A stretch of 64,000 nt of DNA from an uncultured Clostridium sp. (lineage in GTDB: Bacteria > Bacillota_I > Bacilli_A > RF39 > UBA660), in contig CAMKPE010000005.1 of assembly GCA_946414595.1 (NCBI GenBank), positions 704 through 64,703 on the forward strand. The letters run 5' to 3'. The stretch's first letter is position 1, and each line of letters opens with the position of its first letter. Of this stretch, positions 5,744 through 61,813 are shown piece by piece. The notes below the pieces were generated by a model. It worked only from the letters and a program-made list of their open reading frames with translations. It was not told the origin of the DNA and made no database searches. The position numbers and the translations under genes were made by a program.

Positions 5744-8700
5744 ATGAAAAAGATAACAGTAGTTTATGAAAGAAATGAAGAAACTAATGCAATAGAATTA
5801 AGAACAATAGTAATTTTCGACGACAATAAAGCTCCAGTTGTTACAGATTATGTAAATAAAGAAAGCTTAATCGCAGCAGCTGAGTTTATTACAGCTAACG
5901 GATATGACGTATTAAAAGAAACTAACACTAGAAAAGCTGTAGATGATGGTTTAGTTACATTAGTATCACGTACTAATGCTAAAGCAATGGCTGAGTTAAG
6001 AGCAGAAATCATGCAAGAAGAACTTAAGTATGGTGCTGTTGAAGACAAAGTTGCTAAGGCAATAACTGATGGTGCTAAAGAAGAACCAAAAGAAGAAATT
6101 AAAGAAGAAGTAAAAGATGATTCTAAAGACGAAGAAACTGAAAGATTAGTTGCATCAGTTGAAGGTCATGAATTAGAATTATCACAAGATGATAGACAAT
6201 TCGCTCAATATTTAAAATTATATTTAATTAGAAAGAAGAGAGAATTAACTCGTGAAGAGGAAGGTCAACTATTTGGATTAGTTAGAGAAAACGAAAGAGC
6301 AAGAGTTCTTGAAGATGCTTTAATTAAATTAGAGAATAAAGAAATAACTAAAGAAACTTTCGATGAAATCTATAACAATTACAGAGCACAATTAAGTGGT
6401 GCAATTAAGAACGCTGGAATCAAGTTAATTGAAAAAGCTGCTCCAGTTGCTGTTGAACCAATGAAAGAAGAAGTTGCTCCTGCAGTTGTAGAAGAAGTTA
6501 AGGAAGAAAAAGCTCCTGCAGTTCCTGAAGTAAAAGAAGAAAAAGCAGAGGAACCAAAGGAAGAACCTGCTGTTGAAAAGAATGTATTAAACATTCCAAA
6601 AGAAGACAGGGATTATGCTAATTATTTAAAATTAGTTATGAAAAGAGAAAAAGCTCCATTATCTACAGAAGATGAAGGAAAATTAATGGGACTAGTTAGA
6701 GAAAACGAAAGAGCAAGAGCTCTTGAGGAATCTAATATTAGAAAAACAAATGGTACTATGACTGAAGAAGAATATAATACTATTTATGCACAATACAGAA
6801 AAGAACTTGCTGATTCATTCAAAAAAGCTTCAAAAGAAGCTAAAGTTGAAAGAAGAACAGTTGAAGTTCCAAAAGTAGAGGAAGCTGAAGTTAAATTACC
6901 TGAGGCTCCAGTAGTAACTGAAACTGAAGAACCAGTTAAGACTACAGTTATTCCTGTACCTGTTCCTGTAACTGAAGATGAAAAACCTGAAAAGGAACCA
7001 GCTAAGGAAGAAACTAAGGAAGAAGCTAAAGTTGAAACAGTTGTTCCTGCTCCAGTTCCTGTAACTGAAGAAAAGAAAGATGCAGCTGAACCAACAAAAG
7101 CTGAACCTGTTAAAGAAGAAGTTGTGGTTGAAGAAGCAGCTCCAGTAGTTCCTGTAACTGAAGAAAAGAAAGATGCAGCTGAACCAACAAAAGTTGAACC
7201 AGCTAAAGAAGAGGACAAATCAAAAGTAGTTCCTGTAGTTGTTCCAGTTGCAGTTCCAGCTGCTGAAAAAGCACCTGAAACTAAACCTGCTGAATCTGAA
7301 AAAGCACCTGAAAAGGAACCTGAAGCTAAACCAGCAGACGGAAGTTCAACTGAAGAACCTAAAAAGGATGATACAAAGGCTGAGCCTAAGAAAGAGGGGG
7401 AACCTGAAACTATGGTAGTAAAAACTGCTGATCCTGAAATTAAGGGATTAAAACCTGGAAAAACAGAAGAAAAAGTTGTTCCAGTAGATGGAAAAGACAT
7501 CAAAGTTAAGAAAACAGCTTGGTGGAAGAAATTACTAGCTGCACTAGGAATCATGACAATTGTTGGAGGAATTGGTGCATTAGTAGCTGAATTAACTGGA
7601 AAGAACAAACCTAATAGTAATGGAAGAGAACTTCCAAAAACTACAACTGATCAAGTTACACCTGGACCAACACAAACTGTTGGATTAGGAACAAATTCTG
7701 AAGCTATTTTAATCCCAGGAATTGGTGATTTAAATAATTCTATTCAATTACCTCCAGTTGCAACTGAAGAACCAGAAGAAAAAGCAGAAGTAACTCCTGG
7801 ACCAACAGAGCAACCAATAGTAATTGTTACTGCAAGCCCAGAAGAATTAGCTAACGCTCAAAGAAGAGAAACAATTAATGCTATCGAATCATATTGTACA
7901 AACTTCAGTGTACCTGCTGAAACAAAAGCATTCTTAATGAGAGCAGAAGTATTAGACTTCTTAACTCAATATACTAATGCTGATCAAAGATCTGAAGTAA
8001 TCAGTGCATTATGTTATGGATATGAAGCTAACTTATTAACAACAAAAGAAGGTAACTTTAGATTAGCTGAAGATGGATCTAATTACTTATATTCATTCAC
8101 AAGAGACTTCTTATGTGCTAAGGTTGTTGTTAATGGTTACAGCGCAAGACAAATGAAAACAGTATTTGGTAATCAAGATGTATCTTATGAACAAATCATA
8201 GGAGGATTCAAGAATTTCTGTTATACAGTTACAACTTATGGTATGACTGCTCATGAACCATTACCATTTAGATATTTAACTAATAACAGTAGAGCAAAAA
8301 CTGATGTACTAAATAACTTAATGGAAAAATTAATTGTAGTAAATACTAATAGAGATAATCATACATTAACAAGTCAACATACAGATGACTTTATCTCAGA
8401 AGTATTTGATACATTCGTATTAAACGATGAATCAATTGAATTAGGACAAGGAACAAAAGATGTTGCTGGTGCTATCGTTGAAGCATACGTTGCAATGCAA
8501 AGCCAAATCGCAAATGGTGAACCATTATACTTACATGAAGATCGTGGTTATGCAAGAGCAGGAATCAATCTTCAAGAAGTTGACGGACACTTTGCAATTG
8601 GTTACCCAGATAAAACTACATATGAGTTTACAAGCTTATATGATGTAATGAATCATGGATATGGATCACATGCTGAAAATGCTGAACGTTGTCTTTCTGA

Positions 8701-9838
8701 ACAAGAAGTACTAATGTCTAACATTACAGCTATGAGCTTAATTGATAATCCATCACCAGATGCAGAAAGATTAAGTTTCGCTACATTCTTAGATGACAAT
8801 GGATTACATGAAGATGCTCGTTATGTAAGATCTCACGAAGTAAGTGAATCATATCTTACTAACTTAGCAGCAAATAACCCACATCTAGCTAAATATATCA
8901 ATAGTTATATATATGGTGACAAAGTTGTAGGAAACGGATTAATCGATTTCGATACAACATGTGAAAATGTTGATAGATTAGTAGGAGTAAATGCTACTAA
9001 GAATAACTATGCTGACTTAATCAATAATAGAAGAACTAAGTATAGATTAAATGATGAATATACAGTACTTACTGGTAAGAGATATACATCTACAGGTAAG
9101 ACTTCTGGTAGACCAACAGGTACTACAAAACAAGAAGAAGGACATAAGACTGTAACAGTTGTTGAGACTCATGAACAAATTACTAAAAAAGATATGAATC
9201 CACAAGAACGAGAAGAAGCTGAACGTCGAGAGGAAGAAATCAGACATCAAGAAGAACAAGAACATGCTCAACAACAAGAAGAAATTAGAGAAGGAAAAGA
9301 AGAGTTACGTGATGCTGTTGAAGAAGGTGCTTCTCAAGAAAGACTTGAAGAAATAGCAGAAGAACACGGAATTACACTTGATCCTGATTATAAAGAAAAT
9401 ATGGAAGCTGCATTAGAAGAACAAAGACAAGGTGAAGCTGAACGTATTAGACAAGAACAAGAAATCGAAGAAAGAAATAGACAAGCTGAAGCTGAAGCTG
9501 CAAGAAGAGCTGAAGAAGAAGCTAGAAGACAAGAAGAGGAAAGACGTCAACAAGAAGAATTAATTCGTCAAAGTATGGAAGCTGATGAAGCAGAAGCTCA
9601 TCCAGAAGTACATGAAGAACAACCTGCTGAAGAACAACCAGCAGAAGAACATGGACCAGCTCAAGGTGTAGACCAAACTGATCCAGGAAGAGTTGATGAA
9701 GATGCAGAAGAAGAGGATTACAATCCAGATACTGCTTCTATTAAACAACAACTTAACGCTATGAAAATGGCAGCATTAAATCTTCCAGTTGATGTAGATG
9801 GATTTGGATACGAACCATCTGGACCAAGACTTGGATAA
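5744..9838 (+). CDS. 1364-aa acidic bitopic membrane protein of unknown function
   Basis: No signal peptide. The first ~580 aa are E/K/P/V-rich with internal duplications. A single TM helix (WWKKLLAALGIMTIVGGIGALVAELTG) lies at about nt 7520-7600. A ~600-aa globular region follows, then an E/R/Q-rich tail predicted to be coiled coil. Confidence 0.6.
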   Translation: MKKITVVYERNEETNAIELRTIVIFDDNKAPVVTDYVNKESLIAAAEFITANGYDVLKETNTRKAVDDGLVTLVSRTNAKAMAELRAEIMQEELKYGAVEDKVAKAITDGAKEEPKEEIKEEVKDDSKDEETERLVASVEGHELELSQDDRQFAQYLKLYLIRKKRELTREEEGQLFGLVRENERARVLEDALIKLENKEITKETFDEIYNNYRAQLSGAIKNAGIKLIEKAAPVAVEPMKEEVAPAVVEEVKEEKAPAVPEVKEEKAEEPKEEPAVEKNVLNIPKEDRDYANYLKLVMKREKAPLSTEDEGKLMGLVRENERARALEESNIRKTNGTMTEEEYNTIYAQYRKELADSFKKASKEAKVERRTVEVPKVEEAEVKLPEAPVVTETEEPVKTTVIPVPVPVTEDEKPEKEPAKEETKEEAKVETVVPAPVPVTEEKKDAAEPTKAEPVKEEVVVEEAAPVVPVTEEKKDAAEPTKVEPAKEEDKSKVVPVVVPVAVPAAEKAPETKPAESEKAPEKEPEAKPADGSSTEEPKKDDTKAEPKKEGEPETMVVKTADPEIKGLKPGKTEEKVVPVDGKDIKVKKTAWWKKLLAALGIMTIVGGIGALVAELTGKNKPNSNGRELPKTTTDQVTPGPTQTVGLGTNSEAILIPGIGDLNNSIQLPPVATEEPEEKAEVTPGPTEQPIVIVTASPEELANAQRRETINAIESYCTNFSVPAETKAFLMRAEVLDFLTQYTNADQRSEVISALCYGYEANLLTTKEGNFRLAEDGSNYLYSFTRDFLCAKVVVNGYSARQMKTVFGNQDVSYEQIIGGFKNFCYTVTTYGMTAHEPLPFRYLTNNSRAKTDVLNNLMEKLIVVNTNRDNHTLTSQHTDDFISEVFDTFVLNDESIELGQGTKDVAGAIVEAYVAMQSQIANGEPLYLHEDRGYARAGINLQEVDGHFAIGYPDKTTYEFTSLYDVMNHGYGSHAENAERCLSEQEVLMSNITAMSLIDNPSPDAERLSFATFLDDNGLHEDARYVRSHEVSESYLTNLAANNPHLAKYINSYIYGDKVVGNGLIDFDTTCENVDRLVGVNATKNNYADLINNRRTKYRLNDEYTVLTGKRYTSTGKTSGRPTGTTKQEEGHKTVTVVETHEQITKKDMNPQEREEAERREEEIRHQEEQEHAQQQEEIREGKEELRDAVEEGASQERLEEIAEEHGITLDPDYKENMEAALEEQRQGEAERIRQEQEIEERNRQAEAEAARRAEEEARRQEEERRQQEELIRQSMEADEAEAHPEVHEEQPAEEQPAEEHGPAQGVDQTDPGRVDEDAEEEDYNPDTASIKQQLNAMKMAALNLPVDVDGFGYEPSGPRLG
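7052..7200 (+). repeat. Direct coding repeat with 93-bp period (PVTEEKKDAAEPTK[AV]EP)
   Basis: An identical 43-mer, cctgtaactgaagaaaagaaagatgcagctgaaccaacaaaag, occurs at 7058-7100 and 7151-7193. Confidence 0.9.
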
Positions 9839-9850
9839 TAAAAAAATAAA

Positions 9851-9878
9851 AGAAATATAGAAATATATTTCTTTTTTT
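9851..9878 (+). terminator. Rho-independent terminator
   Basis: Stem agaaatata(9851-9859)/tatatttct(9864-9872) followed by a T-run. Confidence 0.75.
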
Positions 9879-9915
9879 GTGCCTTAATTCATATATTCTT
9901 TATAGGTGATTATAG

Positions 9916-10755
9916 TTGAAGAAAATAGTTAATATAGTAATAACTACAATAATGATATTTGGGAGTTTTATCTATACTAATAATGTTGTTAGAAAATCAA
10001 GGGATAATGATCCAATTATGATAAACATAAAAAATGAAGGACCCTTATATGAACAAAAGGTTATTGAAGCAGTTATAGAAGATGATTTATTAATACCAGG
10101 AATAAGTGGATATAAAATTAATATTGATTCAAGTTACTCTAAAATGAAACAAAATGGCAAGTATGATAAAAGCCTATTAGTATTTGATGAAATAACACCA
10201 AAAGTAGTAGCAGAAGAAAATTATGATAATTACATAATAAGTGGTAATAAAGATAATTATAATGTCAGTTTAGTATTCATTATTAAAGATATAAATAATG
10301 TAGAACAAATAGTAAAAATATTAAATGAAAGAGGAGTTAATGGGACATTTTTTGTAGATAAATCATTATTTGATGATGCTATTGATTTGGTAAAGTTTAT
10401 TGCAAATTCAGGAAATGATGTTGAATTATTATCAAATACATATTCAATATATGAAGTAAATAAATATAACTCTATATTAAGATTAACTACTAAAGATAAA
10501 CTATCTTATTGTATCTTTGATAGTAAAAATGAAGAAAAAAAGAAAAGTTGCAAAGAATCTAAACTAGTATCAATTCTACCAAATATAATTACAAACACTT
10601 ACATATATGGAATTGTAAGAAATGATTTATCTAATGGCTCAATAATTTCTATTAATAACAATTTAACTACAGTAAGAGAATTAAAATCTACGATAAATTA
10701 CATAACTCAAAAAGGTAAGAAAATAATATTATTAAAAAATTTAATAAAGGAATAA
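9916..10755 (+). CDS. NodB/polysaccharide-deacetylase-like protein with degenerate catalytic motifs, N-terminal TM anchor
   Basis: NVSLVFIIKD...ILNERGVNGTFFV...IANSGNDVELLSNTYSIY aligns by eye to the NodB pattern (LTFDDG ... ATFF ... GHE.G.H..SH), but the Asp-Asp and His-His positions are replaced. TTG start with an AGGTGA SD. Confidence 0.45.
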   Translation: MKKIVNIVITTIMIFGSFIYTNNVVRKSRDNDPIMINIKNEGPLYEQKVIEAVIEDDLLIPGISGYKINIDSSYSKMKQNGKYDKSLLVFDEITPKVVAEENYDNYIISGNKDNYNVSLVFIIKDINNVEQIVKILNERGVNGTFFVDKSLFDDAIDLVKFIANSGNDVELLSNTYSIYEVNKYNSILRLTTKDKLSYCIFDSKNEEKKKSCKESKLVSILPNIITNTYIYGIVRNDLSNGSIISINNNLTTVRELKSTINYITQKGKKIILLKNLIKE

Positions 10756-25858: not shown

Positions 25859-26197
25859 ATGGATAGTTATAGTTTAGATGAAGTAAAAATGCTTATAGAA
25901 AAAAACTTGCTAACTGGTGAAATATTAAAGAATATTTTAACTAGTTGTACAAGAAGAATAGAGCTATATGATAATAGTGAATCACTAGATATATTAAAGT
26001 ATCTTAAAGATGCTTCTTGTGTTCCTGATGAAACTAAAGAAGAACTATCTAAATTCTTATCTGAGTATGATAACTCCAAGATGGAAGAAGATTCCTCACA
26101 AAAAATTAAAGAAGAAATAAGTAATTGGAAGATTATACTACTTTATGGATTAGTTATTACTCTTATAGTAGTAGGTCTAGCATTCTACTTTTTATAG
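25859..26197 (+). CDS. Tail-anchored small membrane protein, unknown function
   Basis: GAGGT SD, an acidic soluble part and a C-terminal TM helix (IILLYGLVITLIVVGLAFYFL). Confidence 0.5.
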   Translation: MDSYSLDEVKMLIEKNLLTGEILKNILTSCTRRIELYDNSESLDILKYLKDASCVPDETKEELSKFLSEYDNSKMEEDSSQKIKEEISNWKIILLYGLVITLIVVGLAFYFL

Positions 26198-26206
26198 GTG
26201 AATAAT

Positions 26207-26473
26207 ATGAGCGTAAGAATTTCAAATGATGAGAATATAGCAAACTTAAAGAAAAGAAAAATACTAAGATACTTTATGATATTTTTTGATGCTTTAACAC
26301 TTGTTTTAGCAGTTTTATGTTTAGTATTTGGTATAAGTTTTATTTTCCCATTAATTACATACATAATTGCAGTTATACTAGCTAATATTAGGAAAAAGAC
26401 AATTATCAATAAACCTAATGATATTTATGAAGTAGAAGTTGAACTTGAAAAAGCAAAGAAACGTAAAAAATAG
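26207..26473 (+). CDS. Small two-TM membrane protein, unknown function
   Basis: AGGTG SD precedes ATG 26207. Two hydrophobic helices and a K-rich tail. Confidence 0.5.
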   Translation: MSVRISNDENIANLKKRKILRYFMIFFDALTLVLAVLCLVFGISFIFPLITYIIAVILANIRKKTIINKPNDIYEVEVELEKAKKRKK

Positions 26474-26475
26474 TC

Positions 26476-26504
26476 TTTTAAAGGCTGTTTTTTTTTGTTA
26501 TAAT
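26476..26504 (+). promoter_or_regulatory. Putative sigma-A promoter (extended -10) of the WXG/effector operon
   Basis: TGtTATAAT at 26496-26504. The -35 is poor (ttttaa). Confidence 0.35.
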
Positions 26505-26539: not shown

Positions 26540-27454
26540 ATGGCTCTAGAAATTACTTATAATTCAGATGAAATACATGAACTAGAAACCACTTTAGAGA
26601 ATCAAGAAAAGATTTTAGGCGACAATATGAAACAATCTCTAGCAAGTAATTTTGACTCTTTAACAGCAATTGGATTTGGAGGAATTAATAAACTTCAAAG
26701 TCAAACTGATTCGTTAATAACTAGTCATAGTTCATTTATAAAAGAATTAAAAGAACATGATGAAAATAAAATTGAGTTGGAAAATGCTATTAACACTGCT
26801 ATAAAAGCAAAACTTGATAATAACGAATATGAAGAAGCAAATGATGCTTCACAAACTCATGAATTAAATGATGTAGTTTTACAAGAAGTAAATGAAGGAC
26901 AAGAAATAAATACAGAAATGTTAACAGAAGCAGTAAAAGAGTTCTCATATACTGCTAAAGCTGCAATGTTACAAAATATATTAAATCTAGATGTTGGATC
27001 TTTGACATCTCTTTTAACAGATACAAATAAATCAAATATCTTAGTATACGAAATAAGACAAATGTTAAATGATGAAACAACTGACTTATCAAGAGCAGCT
27101 ACTAAAGGTGAAAAAGAAGTTCAAAAAGAATTCATTAGATCTTTAGCAAAAGAAACAAGTAATATCTTTAAAGAAGTTGATGAGAATACTTTCTTAAGAG
27201 GAATACCTTATTACAAAAAAATTTCAGAATTAAATGGAATAAATATAGAAGATTTATTATTAGATGATAAAAACAAGAAATTATTAACTGACTGCGTTAA
27301 ATTCGTATGTGAACATAATGCTGTTAATGGTATTGATGATAGTGATATTGCTGCAGTAAAAGCATACGTTAATGAAGTAGCAAACAAACATAAATTATCA
27401 ACAAGAGAATTATTAACAAGTTCTAACGCACAACTATTGAAAGAGGGTGTGTAA
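26540..27454 (+). CDS. Module 1 lead protein (304 aa, soluble, helical), paralogue of 29460-30368
   Basis: AGGAGTG SD. The N-terminal stretch NFDSLTAIGFGGINKLQSQTDSLITS parallels NFEALSKAGLYTNGLSKIKQQIEYVSS in the paralogue. Confidence 0.6.
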   Translation: MALEITYNSDEIHELETTLENQEKILGDNMKQSLASNFDSLTAIGFGGINKLQSQTDSLITSHSSFIKELKEHDENKIELENAINTAIKAKLDNNEYEEANDASQTHELNDVVLQEVNEGQEINTEMLTEAVKEFSYTAKAAMLQNILNLDVGSLTSLLTDTNKSNILVYEIRQMLNDETTDLSRAATKGEKEVQKEFIRSLAKETSNIFKEVDENTFLRGIPYYKKISELNGINIEDLLLDDKNKKLLTDCVKFVCEHNAVNGIDDSDIAAVKAYVNEVANKHKLSTRELLTSSNAQLLKEGV

Positions 27455-27455
27455 G

Positions 27456-27755
27456 ATGAAACTACAAGCTAAATATGATGATATAGATAAATTAGGTATA
27501 GAGATAAATAATAAAAAAGAAGAGATAGATAATATCTTAAAGAATATTGAAAAAATGCTTGATGAAGTAGAAACAGCATGGACTGGAACAGATAGTGATA
27601 CATATGTTAAAGGTACTAAAGAAATAATAGATGCAGAAAAAGCAAGAGCAGAAAAGATTAGATTAATAAGTGATGCATTAAGATACTCTGCAGCGAAGTA
27701 TAAAAATAATGATGAAGAAGGATCTTCAACTTTCAAAAATGAGGAGATTAACTAA
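27456..27755 (+). CDS. WXG100-family (EsxA-like) small helical protein, module 1
   Basis: 99 aa with a central W-x-G (VETAWTGTDSDTY) between two predicted helices. GAGGGTG SD. Confidence 0.7.
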   Translation: MKLQAKYDDIDKLGIEINNKKEEIDNILKNIEKMLDEVETAWTGTDSDTYVKGTKEIIDAEKARAEKIRLISDALRYSAAKYKNNDEEGSSTFKNEEIN

Positions 27756-28081
27756 TGAATAACTTACAGTTTGATCAAGCAAAACTACAAGATATTCTTA
27801 ATAATTTAGAAAAGAATATAGAAGATTTAAAAAGTACCTATAATGAAATAGCAAAAGAAATGACTGTTATAGATGGGACAAACGATATATGGAAAAGCGA
27901 TACCCAAAAAACAGTACATGAATATTATAAAGAAGTAGAAAAAGACTTCGAAGAAAGCGTACAAAACTTAAATAATTGTAAAGAATTTTTAAAAGCAACT
28001 ATAGATAACTATAGTAATAGTATTGCATCTAATCAAAAGAATGCAGAAGATAGTGGAGATAGCTTAGAAATAAATAATTAA
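27755..28081 (+). CDS. Second small helical WXG100-like/Lap-like partner protein, module 1
   Basis: 108 aa with central DIWKSDTQK. TAATG coupling to the previous gene. Confidence 0.6.
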   Translation: MNNLQFDQAKLQDILNNLEKNIEDLKSTYNEIAKEMTVIDGTNDIWKSDTQKTVHEYYKEVEKDFEESVQNLNNCKEFLKATIDNYSNSIASNQKNAEDSGDSLEINN

Positions 28082-28095
28082 GGAGGTGTGTTATT

Positions 28096-29448
28096 ATGTC
28101 ACAACATTATAAAGAATCATATAAAACTTATTATGAAAAATTAACTGCACACTCTCCAGATACAGACACTATTGAAGAAAAAGTACTAGAACTAGATGAG
28201 AATGCTAAGAAACTTGAAAGTGAAATAAGTGGATTTACTTGGAAAGAATTAGCAAGAGATGAAGTTAAAAATAGTATTATTCCTAGATTAAATAGTAGAG
28301 TATCAGTTTATTTAGAAAATATAAATAATCATTTATTGCCAGCAGCTTACAAAGCAAATAATGAATTATATCCACTTCTTAAAGACATTAAAACTAAGAG
28401 TGAAGAATATGATGCATTATTTAATGAAATAGAAGCAAATAGTGAAAATGATGTTGATACATCTAGTCTTAAAGAAAAGTTAACTACTTTAGATCAAGAG
28501 ATGAATCAAATATCAACTGATATTGATAAAGTAGTTAATGAAATTAAATCACTTGGAGACTTAAAAGAATTAGAAGGAAGTAGTGTAGTTGAAAACATAA
28601 CAAAAAATGAAGTACCAACTACACCAGCACAAGAGAATAATAGTTATATAGAAACATTTAACTATGATAATAGAGACTTCCCTAATATAGAAACAAATAG
28701 TGTTTATGTAGCAGATGAACCTTTATCAGATGAAGCTGCAGCTGAAACAAAGAAAAAGATTAGAACTAGAAAGAAATGTATTATTGGAACAGATATAGTA
28801 GAAGAGTTCTTAAAGATAAAAAGAAGACTTGATAAAGAAAGACAAAGTGAAGAATTACCTGCTGTTCCAATTAAGTCATCTTCTACATTTGATTTTTCAA
28901 ATAATAATAATGTTAAGAAATGGTCTGGTTTTAATAAGGATTGGGTTGTTGTTGATACAACATTTGCAATTGACAAGTATCAATCTTATGCTTACAGTAA
29001 AGGAATAAGACAAGATAGTAATGCTGGAAGATATGGAGATTTATGTTTGGCGTTTAGTTATGTTCATGCATCAAACTTAAAAAGCGGATCAACTGGTGAT
29101 ACTGCAGAATCAGCATTTAACTGGGATCATGCAGGAGAATTTAAAGATTATTTTTCCAATAGTAAAGGTGATACATTATCAACTATCTATAATGAAGTAA
29201 CAAAAGGAAATCCAGTAATATTACAAGTTAATGGTAATAAAGAAGGAACACATAGACATTTTGTTACTGTAGTAGGATTTAAAAATACAGTAACAGATGC
29301 TAGTAAATTAAAAGAATCTGACTTATTAATATTAGATAGTTGGGATGGACAACTTGAAACAATGGATAGTAGTAGCTCTAGATTTATGACAACTGGAGCA
29401 CAAACAAATAAGAGTTACAGTGGGTATTATTTAAGAATATGTAAATAG
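28096..29448 (+). CDS. Putative polymorphic effector: helical LXG/WXG-like N-terminus plus C-terminal papain-fold Cys-His-Asp domain, module 1
   Basis: AAGGAGGTG SD. The N-terminus has YKTYYEKL...FTWKELARDEV...LLP. The C-terminus has GDLCLAFS (Cys317, nt 29044-29046), RHFVTVVGF and LILDSWDG. Confidence 0.65.
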   Translation: MSQHYKESYKTYYEKLTAHSPDTDTIEEKVLELDENAKKLESEISGFTWKELARDEVKNSIIPRLNSRVSVYLENINNHLLPAAYKANNELYPLLKDIKTKSEEYDALFNEIEANSENDVDTSSLKEKLTTLDQEMNQISTDIDKVVNEIKSLGDLKELEGSSVVENITKNEVPTTPAQENNSYIETFNYDNRDFPNIETNSVYVADEPLSDEAAAETKKKIRTRKKCIIGTDIVEEFLKIKRRLDKERQSEELPAVPIKSSSTFDFSNNNNVKKWSGFNKDWVVVDTTFAIDKYQSYAYSKGIRQDSNAGRYGDLCLAFSYVHASNLKSGSTGDTAESAFNWDHAGEFKDYFSNSKGDTLSTIYNEVTKGNPVILQVNGNKEGTHRHFVTVVGFKNTVTDASKLKESDLLILDSWDGQLETMDSSSSRFMTTGAQTNKSYSGYYLRICK

Positions 29449-29459
29449 TGGAGGAAAAC

Positions 29460-30368
29460 ATGGCTATAAGAAAAAACACAGTTTCAATTGATAGTGATAC
29501 GTTAAATAGTGTTGTTAGTAATTTGAATAGTTCAGCAAGCACTCTAGAAAGTGATGTAGGATCAAAATTACCAGGTAATTTTGAAGCATTATCTAAAGCA
29601 GGGCTATACACAAATGGACTATCAAAAATTAAACAACAAATTGAATACGTTTCATCAATGGAAAAAGAATTAGCTAGTGATGTATCTAAGCATCTTGACG
29701 AATCTGTAGATACAGAAGAAGAACTTACAAATAAATTTAAAACCCACGGAAAATATGATGCCGATAATGGGCATAATGGTGGTAACAACCATGATTCAGG
29801 AGATAATTCTGATAACCAAGTTGACGATGGAAAGAAAGTTAATAGCACAAAACTAATGGATAACATTAAAGCAATTGATGCTACTAATGTAGAAAAACTA
29901 GTTAACTTTATTAATGTATACAAAGAAAAAGATTCACTTGTATCACTAATCTTTAACCATGAAAAATCTCAAAAGCTAGGTAATATAATTTTGAAAGCAT
30001 TTGGATATGAAGAATTCTCAAGTATTACCGAAAGCGAATATAAAGAAATACAAAAGACTTTAATAGATAAATTATTTGAACAAGAAACAATACCAACAAA
30101 ATTACAATATAATACGATACTTTCTGCAAAAGAATATTTAGTACAAGTAGCACAAAAGAATAATATTAAGGTAAGTGAACTTCTTGTTGAAGATAAACAT
30201 GAGAATATATTAAGAGAATCATTAAAGAATTTATATGCTGGTAATGTAAAAGACTATAATGTATCTGAACAAACAGTAAGTAGCTTTAGAACATATATAG
30301 ATGGAATTGCTAGTGATAATAATATTACTTATGATAAAGTGTTTGATAATTTAAAACTATTGTTTTAG
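29460..30368 (+). CDS. Module 2 lead protein (302 aa), paralogue of 26540-27454
   Basis: GGAGGA SD precedes ATG 29460. Same size and N-terminal pattern as 26540-27454. Confidence 0.6.
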   Translation: MAIRKNTVSIDSDTLNSVVSNLNSSASTLESDVGSKLPGNFEALSKAGLYTNGLSKIKQQIEYVSSMEKELASDVSKHLDESVDTEEELTNKFKTHGKYDADNGHNGGNNHDSGDNSDNQVDDGKKVNSTKLMDNIKAIDATNVEKLVNFINVYKEKDSLVSLIFNHEKSQKLGNIILKAFGYEEFSSITESEYKEIQKTLIDKLFEQETIPTKLQYNTILSAKEYLVQVAQKNNIKVSELLVEDKHENILRESLKNLYAGNVKDYNVSEQTVSSFRTYIDGIASDNNITYDKVFDNLKLLF

Positions 30369-30377
30369 GAGGCATCT

Positions 30378-30707
30378 ATGATATTTAAAGTTGATTATGA
30401 TTATGTAGATGAAACAGGTAAAAATGTTTTAACAGAAGTAAATAAACTTGAAACAAATAGACAGAACTTATTAACATACCTAGATGAACTTGGTGAGTCT
30501 TGGTCTGGCTCTGACTATGATGAGTTTAAAGAAAATGCTAAAACATATATTGATAATTTAAAAATAAAATTTGAAGAATTAGAATACATGTCTGGTTTTA
30601 TGAGATATGCTTCTAAAAGGTATTCAAATAATGATGATAAATGGGCTGATAAACTTAAAGAATATAGAAATAAGGATGAAGAAAAATGGCTATTGGAAAC
30701 CAAATAA
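30378..30707 (+). CDS. WXG100-family small helical protein, module 2
   Basis: 109 aa with GESWSGSDYDEF centrally placed. TAGGAGG SD. Confidence 0.7.
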   Translation: MIFKVDYDYVDETGKNVLTEVNKLETNRQNLLTYLDELGESWSGSDYDEFKENAKTYIDNLKIKFEELEYMSGFMRYASKRYSNNDDKWADKLKEYRNKDEEKWLLETK

Positions 30708-31012
30708 AAGCAACTGAATTCGAAGAAACAAAAAATAAGTTTATCAAAGCCACACAAGAAATTGAATCATCTTTAAAAAGAATAGAAGAATTAATGAAGC
30801 CTATAGATGGAAATAATGAAAATTGGTCTGGTAAGACAGCTAAAGCAGTAGTAGAGAAGTATGCTGAGTTTAGAGATAATTTTGATGAAATAAACTCTAA
30901 GTTAGCAGATTACGGAAGTTATCTAAATAAAACATTAGAAAATTATACAAATGCTATGGCAAAGAGTGAAGCTACAATAGCAATAACAGAAGATAATTTT
31001 AACGTAAGTTAG
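30686..31012 (+). CDS. Second small helical WXG100-like/Lap-like partner protein, module 2
   Basis: 108 aa with NENWSGKTAKAV. 22-nt overlap with the preceding gene. Confidence 0.6.
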   Translation: MAIGNQIKATEFEETKNKFIKATQEIESSLKRIEELMKPIDGNNENWSGKTAKAVVEKYAEFRDNFDEINSKLADYGSYLNKTLENYTNAMAKSEATIAITEDNFNVS

Positions 31013-31031
31013 AATAAGTTGGGAGGAGCAT

Positions 31032-32219
31032 ATGGCAACATATTTTATAGATCCATATACAAAATATTATGATGCTTTAAAAGGTGCACAAATAATCGCT
31101 TCAGAAAGTGAAGCAATGGCATCTAAAGTATCTGATAGCATGAGTTCAGTTGATCGATTATCCTCAATCGTATCAACATCTGATTGGAAAGAAAAAGGTG
31201 CAACAGAATTAACAAGCACAACTATTTCTAATCTAAAAGGATGTATACAAACAATTGAGAATAATATAACTAATTCTTTAAAAGCAGCATGTGATATTGC
31301 CATAAATAGTCTGCTTCCAGAATTAGAAGGTTTAAAAACTGAAGATGAAACATATGACGCTGTTACTACTGAATTAAATAATTTAGTTGTACCAATGCAA
31401 TATGATGATGAAGGGTATATAACAAGCGCATATCTAGAATATAAAGATACAAAGAGTAGATTAACAAGTGAACAAAATAGAGCAAAGACAAAGTGCATTG
31501 AACATCAAACTAATGCTAGAACATACGCTGATCAAGTAAAAGCAAAAGATGGGGCTCTAGAAGAAATTAAGCAAAAAGTTTCAACAGGAGGCGGAGGTAC
31601 TGGTACTCTTACAGTTCTTGATTATGATGCAAATAGTAATTTAATTAAAGTATCATACAATGGACAAGAGTTCTATGTAGTAAATACTAAGACTTCTGTT
31701 ATAGAATATGAAGAATATGTTCAAAAGAATAAATGTACTCAAAATGGTGGTATTCTAGGTGGAGAATGTATGCTTTTATCACAATATTATGCAGTAGACT
31801 TATTAAGAGGAACATTTACATCAAGAGATGATATGGCACAAGCAAAAGGTTCTCCAGCAACACGAATTAACGATTATGTTAGTTCACCTGATGAGGATGA
31901 TGTTTTAGAGTATATATATACTGAGGCATTAGCAGGAAGACCAACTGTATTACAAGTTACTCAAGTTAGATCTGACGAAGGTTTAAGACACTTAGTTACA
32001 GTAGTAGGTTTTGATTCAAGTGTAAAAAGTTATAAAGACCTAACACCAGATAATATATTGGTTTTAGACTGTGTTGATGGTAAGATTCAAACATTAGGAC
32101 AAGCAAGAGCTGAAGGTGGTCATGCTAGAAGTCTATTTGCACAAGGTGGTAAATACTTTGCAAGAGGTGCAACAGATGGCTTCTTAAGCAAAGAGGTATA
32201 TACTACAAAGAACGCATAA
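31032..32219 (+). CDS. Putative polymorphic effector, module 2 (helical N-terminus plus papain-fold C-terminal domain)
   Basis: GGGAGGAG SD. YTKYYDAL...SDWKEKGATEL...LLP at the N-terminus. GGECMLLS (Cys246, nt 31767-31769), RHLVTVVGF and LVLDCVDG are colinear with the 28096-29448 product. Confidence 0.65.
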   Translation: MATYFIDPYTKYYDALKGAQIIASESEAMASKVSDSMSSVDRLSSIVSTSDWKEKGATELTSTTISNLKGCIQTIENNITNSLKAACDIAINSLLPELEGLKTEDETYDAVTTELNNLVVPMQYDDEGYITSAYLEYKDTKSRLTSEQNRAKTKCIEHQTNARTYADQVKAKDGALEEIKQKVSTGGGGTGTLTVLDYDANSNLIKVSYNGQEFYVVNTKTSVIEYEEYVQKNKCTQNGGILGGECMLLSQYYAVDLLRGTFTSRDDMAQAKGSPATRINDYVSSPDEDDVLEYIYTEALAGRPTVLQVTQVRSDEGLRHLVTVVGFDSSVKSYKDLTPDNILVLDCVDGKIQTLGQARAEGGHARSLFAQGGKYFARGATDGFLSKEVYTTKNA

Positions 32220-32233
32220 ATATAAATAAATTG

Positions 32234-32262
32234 TTGACTTTTAGAATAAATTATTATATAAT
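32234..32262 (+). promoter_or_regulatory. Sigma-A-type promoter of the infC operon
   Basis: TTGACT(32234-32239)-17 nt-TATAAT(32257-32262). Confidence 0.6.
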
Positions 32263-32268
32263 CAAAAA

Positions 32269-32400
32269 CGTAATAAAAAAGGAAAGAGATGTATCCACAT
32301 CCACCTGATTGCGAAAAGCTTTGGGTAAAATGCCAAGAAGAAACAATAATTACAACGTTTTTATGGTATTAAAAGTGGATATATTATGTCCACTTTTTTA
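32269..32400 (+). promoter_or_regulatory. Ribosomal protein L20-type leader with intrinsic terminator (infC-rpmI-rplT attenuator)
   Basis: A ~130-nt untranslated leader lies between the promoter and infC. It ends in the hairpin aaaagtgga/tccactttt (32371-32397) plus a T-run, just before the infC SD. In Firmicutes this operon is regulated by an L20-binding leader. Confidence 0.55.
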
Positions 32401-33169: not shown

Positions 33170-33778
33170 ATGGCAAGAGTAAAGAATAGTGTAACAACAA
33201 GAGCACGTCATAAAAAAGTTCTTAAAGCTGCTAAAGGATACTTTGGAAGCAAACATAGATTATATAAGACTGCTAAAGAACAATTAATGCATTCTGGACA
33301 ATATGCATTTAGAGACAGACGTCAAAAGAAAAGAGATTTTAGAAAATTATGGATTACAAGAATTAACGCTGCATGTCGTGAAAACGAAATCAGTTATTCT
33401 AGATTCATTGAAGGATTAAACAAAGCTGGAGTTGAAGTTAACAGAAAGATGTTATCTGAAATAGCTATCGCTGATCCAAAAGCATTTGCAGAATTAGTTA
33501 AAACTGCTAAGAATGGATTAGAAGGAAAAGTTAAAGCAGCTAAAGTTGAAAGCAAAAAAGAAGTTGAAGTTGTAAAAGCAACTAAGGCTAAAGCAGAAAA
33601 GAAAGAAACTGCTAAAGAAGAAAAAGAGGAAAAACCAGTTAAAAAAGCAGCAGCACCTAAGAAGGCAGCAGCTACTAAAAAAGAAGAAAAAATAGAAGAA
33701 AAAGCACCTGCTAAAAAAGCACCTGCAAAGAAAACTACAACAGCTAAGAAAACAACTACAAAAAAAGAAACTAAATAA
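33170..33778 (+). CDS. rplT: 50S ribosomal protein L20 with an ~84-aa K/A/E/T-rich C-terminal extension
   Basis: The first ~118 aa form a canonical L20 core ([19 protein letters not shown]...RINAACRE...). The protein then continues to 202 aa with AKK/KKE/TTKK low-complexity sequence. Confidence 0.9.
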
Positions 33779-33865: not shown

Positions 33866-34927
33866 ATGACAGTAGTGTCAATGAATTATTTATTAGAAGC
33901 AGGAGTTCACTTCGGACATCAAAAGAGAAGATGGAACCCAAAAATGAAGGAGTATATTTATACTTCAAGAGATGATATTTATATTATCGACTTACAAAAA
34001 ACTCAAAAGAAGATTGAAGAAGCTTATGAAGCAATGAAAGAGATTGCAGCAAATGAAGGAAAAATCTTATTTGTTGGAACTAAGAAACAAGCTCAAGAAG
34101 CTGCAGAAGAAAGTGCTACAAGAACTAACATGTATTTCGTAAATGAAAGATGGTTAGGTGGAACACTTACTAACTTCAAGACAATTAGATCAAGAATCAA
34201 AAGATTAGATGAAATCGAAAAGATGGAAGCTGACGGAACTTTTGATAAATATGAAAAGAAAGAAGTTATTAAATTCAAGAAGGAATACGAAAAGTTAAAT
34301 AAGAACTTAAGAGGAATCAGAGAAATGAAGAAACTTCCTGATGCTCTAGTAATCGTAGATCCAAGAAAAGAAGAAATAGCTATTAAAGAAGCAAGAAAGT
34401 TAAACATTCCAGTATTTGGAGTTGTAGATACTAACTGTGACCCAGATATGGTTGATTATGTTATTCCAGGAAATGACGATGCTGTAAGAAGTGTTAAATT
34501 AATGATTGGAGCACTTACTAACGCTATCGCTGAAGTAAATGGAAACGAAATAATCGATTATGTTACTGAAGAAGATAAAAACAAGGCAGCAGGAAAAGGA
34601 AAGAAAGATGACGTTAATGAATTCGTTGAATCTCTAGAAAGAGAAATCAAAGTTGAAAAAGACGACATTGATTCTGAAGAAAAAATAGAAAAGTCTAAGA
34701 AACCTGCAAAGAAAGCTAAAGTAGAAGAAAAAGAAGAAGTTAAGGAAGAACCTAAGAAAGAAAAGAAACCAGCTAAAGAAAAAGCTGTAAAAGAAGAAAA
34801 AGTTGAAGAAAAGAAAGATTATTCAGCTATGACTTTAACTGAATTAAAGGAAGCAGCTAAAGAACAAGGAATCAAAGGTTATTCTAAAATGAAAAAAGAA
34901 GAACTTGTTAAAGAATTAAGTAAATAA
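33866..34927 (+). CDS. rpsB: 30S ribosomal protein S2 with a ~120-aa charged C-terminal extension ending in a Rho_N/HeH-like motif
   Basis: The [27 protein letters not shown] core is S2. The protein is 353 aa, against ~235-260 aa typically. The tail ends [32 protein letters not shown]. Confidence 0.9.
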
Positions 34928-42003: not shown

Positions 42004-42079
42004 TGGTGTCCCCGGTAGGACTCGAACCCACATCTATCCCTTAGGAGGGGATTGCTCTATCCTGCTGAGCTACGAGAAC
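42004..42079 (-). tRNA. tRNA-Arg (anticodon CCU), CCA encoded
   Basis: The minus-strand sequence GTTCTCGTAGCTCAGCAGGATAGAGCAATCCCCTCCTAAGGGATAGATGTGGGTTCGAGTCCTACCGGGGACACCA folds as a cloverleaf. The acceptor stem is GTTCTCG/CGGGGAC, the anticodon stem ATCCC/GGGAT with loop CT-CCT-AA, and the T loop TTCGAGT. Confidence 0.9.
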
Positions 42080-46936: not shown

Positions 46937-46964
46937 AAAACTATAGTATAAAACTATAGTTTTT
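46937..46964. terminator. Bidirectional terminator
   Basis: 11-bp stem aaaactatagt/actatagtttt between convergent genes. Confidence 0.8.
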
Positions 46965-49026
46965 ATTTTTTTTCTAGTCTTTGTCCTGGAGTACCAAATA
47001 CTTCAGAAATGATCTTTAATCTACTATCATCTAAAACACTACCATAAATCATAGCATTAAATATTTTCTGTTCTCTAGATAATTCATCACATTCACTATT
47101 ATTTTGTAATATAGCAAAGTTTCTTAATACTTTTTGTTTAGATATTATAATTCCATTTATGTTGTATTCTAGATCACTAATAGAGTACTTTTCTAATTCT
47201 TCAATAATAAATGATTCTTTTGGTATTCCTTTGCTTTCAGCAATTGCTTTATAGCAACTATCATCCATAAATCTATAAACAGCATTAGGAACATATCCAT
47301 CTATATCTTCATCACTAATAATATTCTTACCAACTCTAAAAGCTTGATCAGTTATCTTTGGTGATAGTTTATTATCAATTACTAAAGGAAGACCAAGTTC
47401 TCTACATAATTCCATACGTTTTAAATATGTATAAGATTCTTGCCCAATATATTTAGGATTATTTCTAATAAACTTAGAAAGACCTAATTCAATAAATCTA
47501 TCTATTATTTCAACAAGATTTGTATTTTCAAAAAATTCATAATTATTAGAAGTTGAATATCTAAGACTATAAGTATTGATTAATCTTAATACATTTTCAA
47601 GTTGTTCTCTATCTTGTAAAAGAGTAGCACTATTTCTTGATTTAGATATTGCAAAAGCATCTATCTTGTTATCTCTTAATAAATTAACGTTATTAACGAT
47701 TCTATCGAATGCAGCTTCTTTTATAGTTGTTTCTTGCATTATTTCTTCATTAATATCTTTTACAAATATTTCTGGATTTCTTTTAACAAATTCTTGACTA
47801 ATTACACTACTTGTAATCATTTTATTTACTGTTGATACTATTGCAGGTGTAGATAAAAGTAAAATATCACAAATAGGGTAGGAATCATTATAAATCTTAA
47901 TTCCTGACTCAGTTAATAATGTCATTATCTTTTCTATGTTTTCAATGTTACCATATCTAGTTAATTTAGATAGGTTTTCCATTAAATATTCATGAGTACA
48001 ACAACTCTTCTTAAATATTTTTTCTAATCTAGTCATTGTTTCTTCTTCTTTTAATCTATTAATTGTTTCATTATGGAATTGTAAGTTATGTTTTAATACA
48101 GTTCTTAATACTAAATATTTAATTCTTTCATCAGTAATACTATCTAAAGTACCTTTTGATAGATCTATTGGTCTATTTAAATTGAAAGATTTAATTATAT
48201 TGATAACTTTATCTCTTTTTCTTATGATTGAATTATTTTCTTTTTCTCTTAATCTAGGTAAGTTTTTAATTTCTGTTGCACGCTCTCTTATTGAATCTAA
48301 ACAGTCTAGTGCTTTTGTAACTCTTAATGTAATATCATAGTTTATTTCTTTTTCTCTTATTTCATCTTGTGCAATTTGCATGTAACGTGTTTGAACTATT
48401 GCGCGATAACCAGCGTTAGAAGCTAATGTAAAATTACTTATATCTTTTCCATTATCTGCTACAAAATCTTTTGCTTGCGCTGTAAATTTTAAACCATTAA
48501 CTGCTCCAGCTACTACTAAAGCATTAATTAATGGGACACCAAAATCTTCAATTAATCTAAAATACATAATCCTAGATTTATCTGTTGGGCACATAGTTCT
48601 AATTATTTTTTGAGCTTTCTCAGCAAGATCTAATAAACCTGCTTCTTTAAGCTTTAATGCGTCTTCATCGAATTCTAAATGTTCATATGGAAGAAATACA
48701 AATTCTTCTAATAAACCTTTGTCATTAAATTCTTTTACATAGTCATTAAAAATGAAACAGTAATCATAATCAGGTATTTTCTCTACATTTAATAAACTAA
48801 CTTTATCTCTTATTTCTTTATAAGTAAGTTCTGACTCACTTCCACAAAGAATTGCTATTACTAAATCTTTAACATTTATTTTTAATATAGAATCTTTTCC
48901 ATTTATATCCATTGTTTTACATATACTTTCAAGAAACTCTAATTCTTCTTTTTCATCTTCTGATAGTTCAGTACTTTTAAGTCTTTCTTTATAATAATTA
49001 TTTATATAATGTATCAATCTATCCAT
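46963..49026 (-). CDS. Hypothetical 687-aa soluble, predominantly helical protein
   Basis: Long ORF with an 8-nt overlap with the upstream 329-aa gene. No recognisable motif, TM helix or signal peptide. Confidence 0.55.
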   Translation of the reverse strand: MDRLIHYINNYYKERLKSTELSEDEKEELEFLESICKTMDINGKDSILKINVKDLVIAILCGSESELTYKEIRDKVSLLNVEKIPDYDYCFIFNDYVKEFNDKGLLEEFVFLPYEHLEFDEDALKLKEAGLLDLAEKAQKIIRTMCPTDKSRIMYFRLIEDFGVPLINALVVAGAVNGLKFTAQAKDFVADNGKDISNFTLASNAGYRAIVQTRYMQIAQDEIREKEINYDITLRVTKALDCLDSIRERATEIKNLPRLREKENNSIIRKRDKVINIIKSFNLNRPIDLSKGTLDSITDERIKYLVLRTVLKHNLQFHNETINRLKEEETMTRLEKIFKKSCCTHEYLMENLSKLTRYGNIENIEKIMTLLTESGIKIYNDSYPICDILLLSTPAIVSTVNKMITSSVISQEFVKRNPEIFVKDINEEIMQETTIKEAAFDRIVNNVNLLRDNKIDAFAISKSRNSATLLQDREQLENVLRLINTYSLRYSTSNNYEFFENTNLVEIIDRFIELGLSKFIRNNPKYIGQESYTYLKRMELCRELGLPLVIDNKLSPKITDQAFRVGKNIISDEDIDGYVPNAVYRFMDDSCYKAIAESKGIPKESFIIEELEKYSISDLEYNINGIIISKQKVLRNFAILQNNSECDELSREQKIFNAMIYGSVLDDSRLKIISEVFGTPGQRLEKK

Positions 49027-50008
49027 TTAAATCATCTCTTTTTCTTTCTTTTTTCTTACCAGTTAAAGTGAGTTTAATTCTTCTTAGGATTTCTTGATGC
49101 TCTTCTATGAAACTATCATTTGATAAAGCTTCTTTTAACATTTCTCTTTGCAATCTAAATTCTTTAGCTCTTGCTTCTAGCATTTCACGATAAGGTGCTG
49201 TATTTTGGAATCTTTTAACAAGTATTCCAAGTATAACAATTACATCATTATCAAGTCTTGTAAAGATTATTCTTGAGTCTCTTCTTCTTATTGCAGATAT
49301 TCCTTTTAATGGATTATAGTTATAGAATCTTTTTTCTCTTGTCATTTTATTCTTTTCTATATCTTCAATAATAGGTATCATATCTTCTTCATCGTTAATC
49401 TCATCTATATCTGAATCAACATAAAGTGATCCATTAGATTTTCTTAAGAATATAATTTTATTTTTATGTTCATCAAAAGTTTCTTCTATAGTTTCTTCTT
49501 GAAGATTATATGCTTTAATTATTTCAATTAATCTTCTATTATTATTAATTAAATCAATTAAATATTCTTCATCTTCTTCATTCATCATTTCATGAGCAAT
49601 TTGTATTTCACGTAATAAATATAAAAGAATAGATGAGATAATTGTGTCATAGTTAGTATCATAACTTGATGGAAGAAGTTCAGTTAAGAAGTCTTCATCA
49701 TCACAATCTTTTAAAGATAAAACGTATGGAAGCACATCAGTTAAGTTTGATTTAACTGTTGGTTTAACTTCAACGCTTTCTTCTTCCACATTATTTTTCT
49801 TTTGAACTTTTTCTTTTCTTCTTGTATGTTCAAATGACTTTTTATGCTCACTATCAACACTTAGGTTATGTTTTAAAACATCTATTAAGATTTTATTTAT
49901 ATCTTCAGAAGAAGTCTCTTCTTCACGCAAAAAAGTAACTAAACTTCTAATGTCAGTTACATAACCATATTCACCCGTAAATTTCTTAATTATTTCATTA
50001 GTTGTCAT
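49019..50008 (-). CDS. 329-aa protein with a RelE/HigB (Gp49-like) toxin-fold C-terminal domain
   Basis: The C-terminal KIIFLRKSNG...YNPLKGISAIRRRDSRIIFTRLDNDVIVILGILVKRFQNTAPYREMLEARAKEF matches the pattern of RelE/ParE/HigB toxins (L.G....R.R.g.yRiiy...d...vvil.i..K..q.tP..ei..A). AAGGGG SD. Confidence 0.55.
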   Translation of the reverse strand: MTTNEIIKKFTGEYGYVTDIRSLVTFLREEETSSEDINKILIDVLKHNLSVDSEHKKSFEHTRRKEKVQKKNNVEEESVEVKPTVKSNLTDVLPYVLSLKDCDDEDFLTELLPSSYDTNYDTIISSILLYLLREIQIAHEMMNEEDEEYLIDLINNNRRLIEIIKAYNLQEETIEETFDEHKNKIIFLRKSNGSLYVDSDIDEINDEEDMIPIIEDIEKNKMTREKRFYNYNPLKGISAIRRRDSRIIFTRLDNDVIVILGILVKRFQNTAPYREMLEARAKEFRLQREMLKEALSNDSFIEEHQEILRRIKLTLTGKKKERKRDDLNG

Positions 50009-61788: not shown

Positions 61789-61813
61789 GTTATTATTAAA
61801 ATAGGTGAGAGTA

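Follow-up and report, generated by a model that had tools for sequence, protein, structure and literature searches.

A stretch of 64,000 nucleotides (nt) of DNA from an uncultured Clostridium sp. (contig CAMKPE010000005.1 of assembly GCA_946414595.1), hereafter called the window, carries between spoIIP and infC a block of eight genes that probably represents two paralogous substrate modules of a secretion system of type VIIb (T7SSb), with export by the ATPase EssC and a papain-like cargo that would cleave the cell envelope. The window has a GC content of ~27% and comes from a lineage of uncultured rumen or gut Bacilli known from metagenome-assembled genomes (MAGs) of sheep, deer, yak, and rabbit. 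Each module encodes two small proteins, Wa and Wb, and two larger ones, H and E, and on the available sequence evidence it is very likely that all four are type VII (T7) substrates. An initial annotation made from the sequence alone had proposed two paralogous T7SS-type effector modules, and this proposal gained support from WXG100 profiles, from WxG and YxxxD/E motifs, from matches to EsxA and EsxB structures, and from an essC gene in a related locus (L072). The four features which that annotation had found anomalous, namely an additional gene at the head of each module, the lack of an immunity gene, the lack of a secretion core, and a location inside the core genome, are largely explained by the results described below.

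The eight co-directional open reading frames (ORFs) at 26540-32219 on the + strand form two colinear four-gene units in the order H-Wa-Wb-E, as established by pairwise BLASTP. The identity between counterparts is 22% for H1/H2 over the full length (E 3e-13), 28% for Wa1/Wa2 (E 1e-14), 29% for Wb1/Wb2 (E 9e-13), and 27-29% for E1/E2, where both the C-terminal part (E 1e-19) and the N-terminal part (E 6e-11) were matched. Because these identities (22-29%) are low, the duplication is old and not recent. The block and its bounds are as follows.

26477-26504, + strand: promoter-like site TTTAAA-16-TATAAT with TG (extended -10), 5' of the eight-gene block (10/12, consensus match only)
26540-27454, + strand: H1, carrier 1 of module 1, 304 amino acids (aa) (alignment)
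27447-27755, + strand: Wa1, WXG100, with a WTG turn and the YxxxD motif YKNND (PF06013, 31.5 bits)
27755-28081, + strand: Wb1, WXG100, with a W-K-S turn and an acidic C-terminal tail, ..DSLEINN (PF06013, 27.5 bits)
28096-29448, + strand: E1, carrier 2 plus cargo, 450 aa (AlphaFold2 models; PF13529, 26.2 bits)
29460-30368, + strand: H2, carrier 1 of module 2, 302 aa from ATG, with an alternative GTG start at 29448 (BLASTP to H1, census with profile hidden Markov models)
30378-30707, + strand: Wa2, WXG100-like, with a WSG turn and the YxxxD motif YSNND (PF06013, 25.1 bits; homology to Wa1)
30686-31012, + strand: Wb2, WXG100, with a WSG turn and an acidic C-terminal tail, ..EDNFNVS (PF06013, 43.4 bits)
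31032-32219, + strand: E2, carrier 2 plus cargo of module 2, 395 aa (BLASTP to E1, profile census)
32234-32262, + strand: infC promoter-like site TTGACT-17-TATAAT, downstream bound of the block (11/12 consensus)

The coordinates of the eight genes and their reading as two copies of one unit had been given correctly in the initial annotation, and so had the details of translational coupling: stop and start codons overlap in TAATG at 27753-27757, a 22-nt overlap is present at 30686-30707, and a GGAGG-type Shine-Dalgarno sequence stands ahead of all genes. A scan found no terminator-like site on the + strand inside 26540-32219. The placement between spoIIP and infC was also right, with the addition that three small membrane-protein genes share the interval with the block. 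The second effector gene does run into the promoter-like site of infC, which is followed by a leader hairpin at 32371-32397.

The small proteins, which are 102-109 aa long, belong to the WXG100 family. With PF06013 (gathering threshold, GA, 27.3 bits), Wa1, Wb1, and Wb2 scored at or above GA and Wa2 just below it; with TIGR03930, all four were below the cutoff. The second gene of each unit had been annotated as a W-x-G protein, which holds, and the third as merely helical, which does not, as Wb is a WXG100 protein by PF06013 too. Comparison by hhalign showed Wa and Wb to be homologous (probability 97%), and the Wb profile matched solved structures of the EsxA/EsxB type, including 4lws, 3ogi, Bacillus anthracis EsxB, and Staphylococcus aureus EsxA, with E-values of 2e-5 to 8e-3. 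In the alignments, all 18 Wa homologues have the W-x-G/S turn and, following helix 2, a Y-x-x-x-[D/E] motif. Wb has tryptophan at the turn in all 16 homologues and W-x-[G/S] in 15 of them, and its acidic C-terminal tail (..[D/E]N[L/F][D/N][V/I]) is kept in each of the 15 homologues from Bacilli modules. WxG together with YxxxD/E forms the bipartite signal that is accepted as targeting proteins to the T7SS (PMC10765036). Paralogues with 25-35% identity elsewhere retain both YxxxD/E and the Wb tail, which implies a shared receptor. The affinity to DUF3130 and DUF3958 (Lap1/Lap2-type partners) that had been suggested was not recovered: the Pfam search placed the partners in WXG100 proper, and neither family was present among the matches listed at E<=1 for the four small proteins (for Wb1, the best 25 of 61). 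A YwqH-like match was weak (E 3.5e-4 to 6e-4, below GA), LapA4 (8gmh_C) matched the Wb profile with an E-value of only 0.39, and Wb2 alone among the small proteins gave a weak match to the LXG profile (E 0.007).

The head protein H was initially described as an extra gene of ~300 aa, and its fusions and co-occurrence identified it instead as an integral second carrier. H1 begins with a helical hairpin, whose conserved turn is of the GLF..GL.KIK type, and continues through a linker rich in Gly and Asn to a conserved domain in the middle (aa ~110-212) and a C-terminal segment of ~90 aa called Hc (213-304). Profile searches found no Pfam, NCBIfam, or PDB family match for H, and a homologue search with the H profile was saturated by low-complexity words and returned 6 matches only. 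First, in locus L034 the full H (Hn and Hc) is fused to the peptidase, and loci L013-L019 have the order Wa, Wb, H aa 1-212 fused to the peptidase, and finally aa 1-110/150 of the E-type carrier domain (En) fused to an unrelated tail. Second, the H, Wa, Wb, and E families occur together in 19 of ~23 non-redundant modules of the profile census. Since the peptidase is found on En in some loci and on Hn in others, H and E are partner carriers, either of which can bear cargo. The fusions in L034 and L013-L019 also ruled out H as an immunity protein.

In the AlphaFold2 model, E1 has a helical En domain (aa 1-160, nt 28096-28575; confident at aa 1-152), a disordered linker (aa ~160-262), and a papain-like domain, in agreement with the helical N-terminus and globular C-terminus proposed earlier for the fourth protein. 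E2 has the same architecture by the profile census, with En at 1-167 (from aa 1 to ~150 or 167) and the peptidase, C39L, at 197-390. En has a conserved turn of its own, W-K-E-x-[G/A] (W-K-E-x-G in the alignment), and its layout, as deduced from sequence, is like that of LXG toxins in architecture and not in sequence. No relation was found by hhalign between En or Hn and Wa/Wb, or between En and Hn. The En model weakly matched the PPE41 fold (2g38_B, 4kxr_B) with template modeling scores (TM) of 0.52-0.54. The En family is small, with 171 clusters among 1.84 billion representatives, and the domain is N-terminal in nearly all of them. Its carriers bear varied cargo, including C39_2, C70, M90, Glucosaminidase (E 1e-31), PIG-L, and GDSL domains as well as many without a family; nuclease, deaminase, and NADase families were absent from the 25 of 29 cargo families listed.

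Two further kinds of carrier were encountered. En-type carriers whose cargo is a very large effector domain (740-1400 aa) without a match in Pfam are encoded at L018:13158-17025 and L015:4169-6397 and by P0264 (1400 aa). A third carrier type, found in L003, L011, L012, and L021 (e.g., L021:7257-11537), has a short N-terminal hairpin (MS.F.LDT.SVS...) and a Gly-rich linker before the peptidase. Four WXG-like genes surround this carrier in L021, and a membrane-protein gene follows it in L003 and L011.

The cargo of E is predicted, from sequence and structural models, to be a papain-like Cys-His-Asp hydrolase domain of the Peptidase_C39_2 type. In E1 this domain spans aa 265-450 (nt 28888-29448), and the full-length model shows a confident alpha/beta fold at aa 270-450. 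Whole-chain Foldseek searches with E1 were uninformative owing to its two domains, and the papain-like domain was re-modeled alone, with a predicted local distance difference test (pLDDT) of 95.4 and a predicted TM (pTM) of 0.92. Cys317 (29044-29046), His388 (29257-29259), Asp414 (29335-29337), and Asp417 are invariant in an alignment of 50 homologues that includes E2. As in papain, Cys317 is located at the N-terminus of a helix, which starts at residue 317, and His388 in a strand (387-396) of the model. E1 matched Peptidase_C39_2 (PF13529) at 26.2 bits, a borderline score relative to the GA of 24, and 47 of 50 members of the cargo family matched it at E<=0.1. E2 carries a second subtype of the domain (aa ~197-390) which is ~30% identical to that of E1. 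Foldseek returned papain-like matches only: staphopain, the C39 domain of PCAT1, IdeS, a CdiA-CT toxin, mycobacteriophage Lysin A, and a cyanophage lysozyme. A PDB sequence search with the peptidase domain, by single sequence and by profile, gave nothing significant. Matches of the domain to Amidase_6 and to phage lysins were weak, and a tblastn search of phages yielded one weak partial match only.

The wider family of the domain provided information on its likely place of action. In Riflebacteria and other bins (L024, L027, L028), the same domain follows a cleavable signal peptide and is accompanied by two SH3b domains; in Saccharibacteria (L029), it is part of membrane-anchored proteins of 1000-1300 aa with Peptidase_M23; and in L020, L022, L023, and L026, proteins with this domain carry N-terminal anchors. 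A published list of catalytic domains in the lysins of phages that infect Gram-positive bacteria includes Peptidase_C39_2 (PMC8223927). From Sec export and from the fusions to M23 and SH3b elsewhere, and also from the other cargo on En (Glucosaminidase, PIG-L, GDSL) and the listing among lysins, the cargo of the window would act outside the membrane on the cell wall, and peptidoglycan is slightly favored as its substrate on this sequence evidence.

In MAGs of the Saccharibacteria (Nanosyncoccaceae), membrane-anchored giants of 900-1300 aa that combine Peptidase_M23 with the papain-like domain are encoded in tandem (L029:2666-6592 and 7367-10495; L031:1685-5620 and 7721-10483). These proteins may be epibiont tools against the wall of the host.

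The link between the modules and a T7SSb motor came from a search for EssC. An FtsK probe, consisting of a motor sequence, was run on all ORFs of the window and of 111 loci (1.26 Mb), and a single match was obtained, at L072:12332-16936 on the related metagenomic contig JAEEGL014831363.1. This gene is essC: its product scored 1041 bits with TIGR03928 (cutoff 778) and contains an FHA domain and two FtsK_SpoIIIE domains. The gene order of L072 is ileS, two successive H-Wa-Wb-E modules, essC, an 87-aa gene whose product is EsaB/YukD-like by eye, a 508-aa gene, and two WXG100 genes, and both Wa proteins retain YxxxD. L072 thus physically ties the module family to a T7SSb motor, which is no proof of an EssC in the window's own genome. 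At L072:6830-19327, on a contig that runs on for 3 kb beyond the part covered, essC lacks essB, esaA, and essA upstream, where the two modules and ileS are located instead, and the 508-aa protein contains repeated Hc-like motifs; L072 may be an unusually arranged or reduced T7SSb locus.

Other candidates for EssC were rejected. The 1364-aa ORF at 5744-9838 of the window matched nothing in Pfam or NCBIfam and lacks a Walker A motif, and a 1396-aa ORF in L009 is PolC. Matches of a P-loop regular expression in the loci, whose Walker A motifs we take to be of the PriA, RecG, and GspE types, did not score against the FtsK probe. Neither the Pfam and NCBIfam searches of the large and unassigned ORFs nor the FtsK probe found an FtsK/EssC gene in the 64 kb, which bears out the earlier statement that a secretion core is lacking there, the sole exception being a sub-threshold EssA-like match described below.

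These results suggest the following mechanism. Each module would make four cytoplasmic helical proteins without signal peptides, Wa, Wb, H, and E, whose helical parts may assemble into a pre-secretion complex. The composite signal formed by WxG/YxxxD and the C-terminal tail would be recognized by an EssC encoded elsewhere in the genome, and the complex exported. The hydrolase would then cleave peptidoglycan or another envelope substrate outside the membrane.

Several observations weigh against this interpretation. First, EssC, EssB, and EsaA were found neither in the window nor within 10 kb of ~40 other module loci, and the modules of L072 are only 20-37% identical to those of the window. Second, the carriers do not fit the LXG-style label of the initial annotation: at E<=0.1, PF04740 (LXG) matched none of 50 members of the E family and none of 19 members of the H family. 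Third, E2 has no direct Pfam match and is assigned by BLASTP homology to the E1 domain, the folds that the cargo matched are distant ones (TM 0.3-0.45, E at least 1.5e-3), and they include toxins that act in the cytoplasm (CdiA-CT, 8ssm; 9l5u). Fourth, a site fixed in the core genome and a peptidase domain as conserved as core proteins (65-68% identity where SpoIIP has 59-62%) are both unusual for an antibacterial polymorphic toxin. The missing core is no anomaly: the genes of T7SSb substrates frequently lie at a distance from the ess locus (PMC10765036), and essC adjoins the module in just 1 of the ~40 module loci examined.

The site and conservation of the modules bear on whether they are weapons. 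In the interval from rpsT to infC, one module copy is present in L007, L008, and GCA_016648615.1, one copy with extra peptidase genes in L034, two copies in the window, L001, and L006, and three copies in L036 and L041. Between relatives, Gpr and SpoIIP are 54-62% identical, InfC ~90%, the helical parts of the module proteins 24-41%, and the peptidase domain 65-68%. Judged from sequence, the change in copy number and the shuffling of cargo are weapon-like features, and the fixed core site and strongly conserved enzyme are housekeeping-like ones. It is possible, if doubtful, that the modules provide autolysins which T7SSb exports to act on the wall of the producer itself, for example in cell separation, passage of the secretion system through the wall, or sporulation and germination, and hence have no immunity gene. 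Such a role would be consistent with the occupation of the same core interval across deep divergence, with the strong purifying selection on the peptidase domain compared to the helical parts, with the absence of an adjacent soluble immunity gene, and with the presence of gpr and spoIIP beside the locus in the window's lineage. Moreover, the T7SSb of S. aureus needs a dedicated wall hydrolase, EssH (PMC10765036; PMC13059805). Against this role, the copy number varies from one to three at the site, with further modules elsewhere in the same MAGs, and the cargo is shuffled between carriers, of which the En type bears varied cargo; the domain also recurs in different phyla, epibiotic Saccharibacteria among them, and the module persists in lineages without gpr and spoIIP at the site. 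Under the preferred interpretation as exported envelope hydrolases, rival bacteria are a modestly better candidate for the target than the producer's own wall.

The question of immunity involves the membrane proteins next to the block. E1 is followed by H2, which is a carrier, and E2 by the infC promoter-like site, so that no cognate immunity gene lies immediately downstream of either; to this extent the initial annotation, which had seen no immunity gene, was accurate. It had overlooked a candidate, up3, which directly precedes the first unit in the window and follows the last effector in other lineages. The two neighbors concerned are as follows.

25859-26197, + strand: up2, a small membrane protein of 112 aa with a tail anchor, possibly an accessory, whose gene is conserved 5' of the module in L009 and in loci of the window type
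26198-26473, + strand: up3, a 91-aa hairpin with two transmembrane segments, candidate immunity or accessory gene of the module array (family alignment)

The match of up2 to EssA (TIGR03927; E 0.0013, 18.6 bits, cutoff 32.45) is sub-threshold and lies mostly over the transmembrane segment, and up2 was not accepted as EssA; the match is a lead only. In many loci up3 flanks the module array on either side, and it is directly downstream of the last effector in L034, L044, L063, L068, and L071; all loci with up3 are in the same syntenic interval except L009. The protein has almost no exposed loop, occurs as a single copy regardless of how many effectors there are, and is lacking in the modules of L072 and of the L013 type. 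A cargo that acts extracellularly on the cell wall would plausibly explain the missing cytoplasmic immunity protein, as none would be needed with an extracellular substrate.

If the effectors were classic polymorphic toxins, that is, proteases acting in the cytoplasm of target cells like contact-dependent inhibition (CDI) or LXG toxins, immunity would be provided by up3 or by a gene elsewhere. The Foldseek matches to the papain-like CdiA-CT toxin (8ssm) and to a "papain-like cysteine protease toxin/immunity pair" (9l5u) and the position of up3 immediately 3' of the last effector in the five loci named above are in keeping with this idea. We regard it as improbable, since the Sec-secreted homologues with SH3b or M23 suggest that the domain acts beyond the membrane and does so with no delivery device, the nearly loopless, single-copy up3 hairpin is missing from two kinds of module, and H, being fused to the peptidase, is not an immunity protein. 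It is very improbable that the genome has no T7SS and that the proteins are released by another route (e.g., a holin-like up2/up3) or have an intracellular role: the core genes are absent from the 64 kb and from beside ~40 other module loci, and up3, which accompanies the array, has a holin-like layout of two transmembrane segments with a charged C-terminus, but L072 joins the module directly to EssC, the conserved YxxxD/E and Wb tail imply a shared receptor, and T7SSb substrates are commonly remote from the ess locus.

Other features of the window were recorded. A 778-aa ORF (3391-5727, + strand), with a weak HYR-domain match only, is adjacent to the 1364-aa ORF (5744-9838, + strand) mentioned above, and both lie upstream of a polysaccharide deacetylase gene, spoIIGA, and sigE. 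The genes rpsB (33866-34927, S2) and rplT (33170-33778, L20) encode long Lys/Glu/Ala-rich C-terminal extensions, and the S2 tail is annotated as Rho_N-like in relatives (L036). Overlapping ORFs of 687 and 329 aa (46963-49026 and 49019-50008, - strand) match no Pfam or NCBIfam family. A lone tRNA-Arg(CCT) is located at 42004-42079 (- strand), and a T-box leader (58106-58303, + strand, 112.5 bits) is located upstream of pheS/pheT. Finally, a 506-aa protein (61805-63325, + strand) with DUF285 repeats ("Mycoplasma protein of unknown function") fits a Mollicutes-related lineage of Bacilli which still holds sporulation genes (spoIIGA, sigE, gpr, spoIIP).

What is known of T7SSb effectors comes almost entirely from work in staphylococci, streptococci, and Bacillus on LXG toxins whose targets are cytoplasmic. 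The locus adds to it in several respects. First, it provides two carrier families that the LXG profile misses. Second, it provides a four-component module with cargo on either of two carriers. Third, its cargo repertoire is centered on envelope hydrolases, with nuclease, deaminase, and NADase absent among the families listed, and lacks an adjacent immunity gene. The host of the module is an uncultured, small-genome, low-GC lineage of Bacilli which is common in ruminant and other animal guts. We tentatively propose, as a possibility more than an expectation, that the modules form a non-LXG class of T7SSb substrates, a four-protein unit of two WXG100 proteins and two interchangeable carriers, which this gut and rumen lineage may keep at one core site as a route for wall hydrolases without signal peptides, possibly directed at its own wall, and without an immunity protein. 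If the preferred interpretation of the locus is confirmed, the rules for finding T7SS substrates in genomes would be widened, and the export of peptidoglycan-directed enzymes by a type VII system could be tested on a concrete case.

Compared to known systems, the modules are similar to the LXG toxins with Lap1/Lap2 partners, such as TelC and TelD of Streptococcus intermedius (PMC10801868; bioRxiv 10.1101/2022.07.06.499029), in that the gene for a protein with a C-terminal enzyme and a helical N-terminal targeting domain is preceded, directly upstream, by two genes for small helical partners. In those systems, too, one partner has a motif of the YxxxD/FxxxD type, the modules often lie far from the ess locus, and TelC acts outside the membrane, on lipid II. 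However, the carriers of the window are not LXG by profile (0/50, 0/19), and their partners are WXG100 proper and not DUF3130/DUF3958. The window modules also add H, a second large carrier capable of bearing cargo, have a papain-like cargo, and lack an adjacent immunity gene of the TipC type.

Multi-partner pre-secretion complexes, in which the export of one large T7SSb effector requires several small helical proteins, are represented by S. aureus EsaD with EsxB/EsxC/EsxD and by the seven-protein assembly of TelE (PMC10653861; bioRxiv 10.64898/2026.03.12.711312). In the EsaD and TelE systems, a nuclease or a pore-forming toxin is accompanied by a chaperone and by its cytoplasmic immunity protein, whereas the window has two WXG100 proteins and a ~300-aa carrier, no recognizable chaperone or immunity protein, and a cargo predicted to be directed at the wall. 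The phage lysins and secreted wall hydrolases of the Peptidase_C39_2 type (PMC8223927) share the papain-like Cys-His-Asp domain, and the family of the window is fused to M23 and SH3b in other phyla; the domain of the window differs in being carried by a T7-type carrier without a signal peptide and in its Pfam support (26.2 bits vs 24 for E1, none for E2). The mycobacterial EsxA/EsxB and PE/PPE proteins (T7SSa) offer a parallel in their WXG100 pair, one member of which has YxxxD/E, and in two co-occurring larger helical carriers, either able to bear an enzyme. With no sequence relation to PE/PPE, a Firmicute host, and a linked ATPase, EssC, of the T7SSb type (TIGR03928), this parallel is an analogy only.

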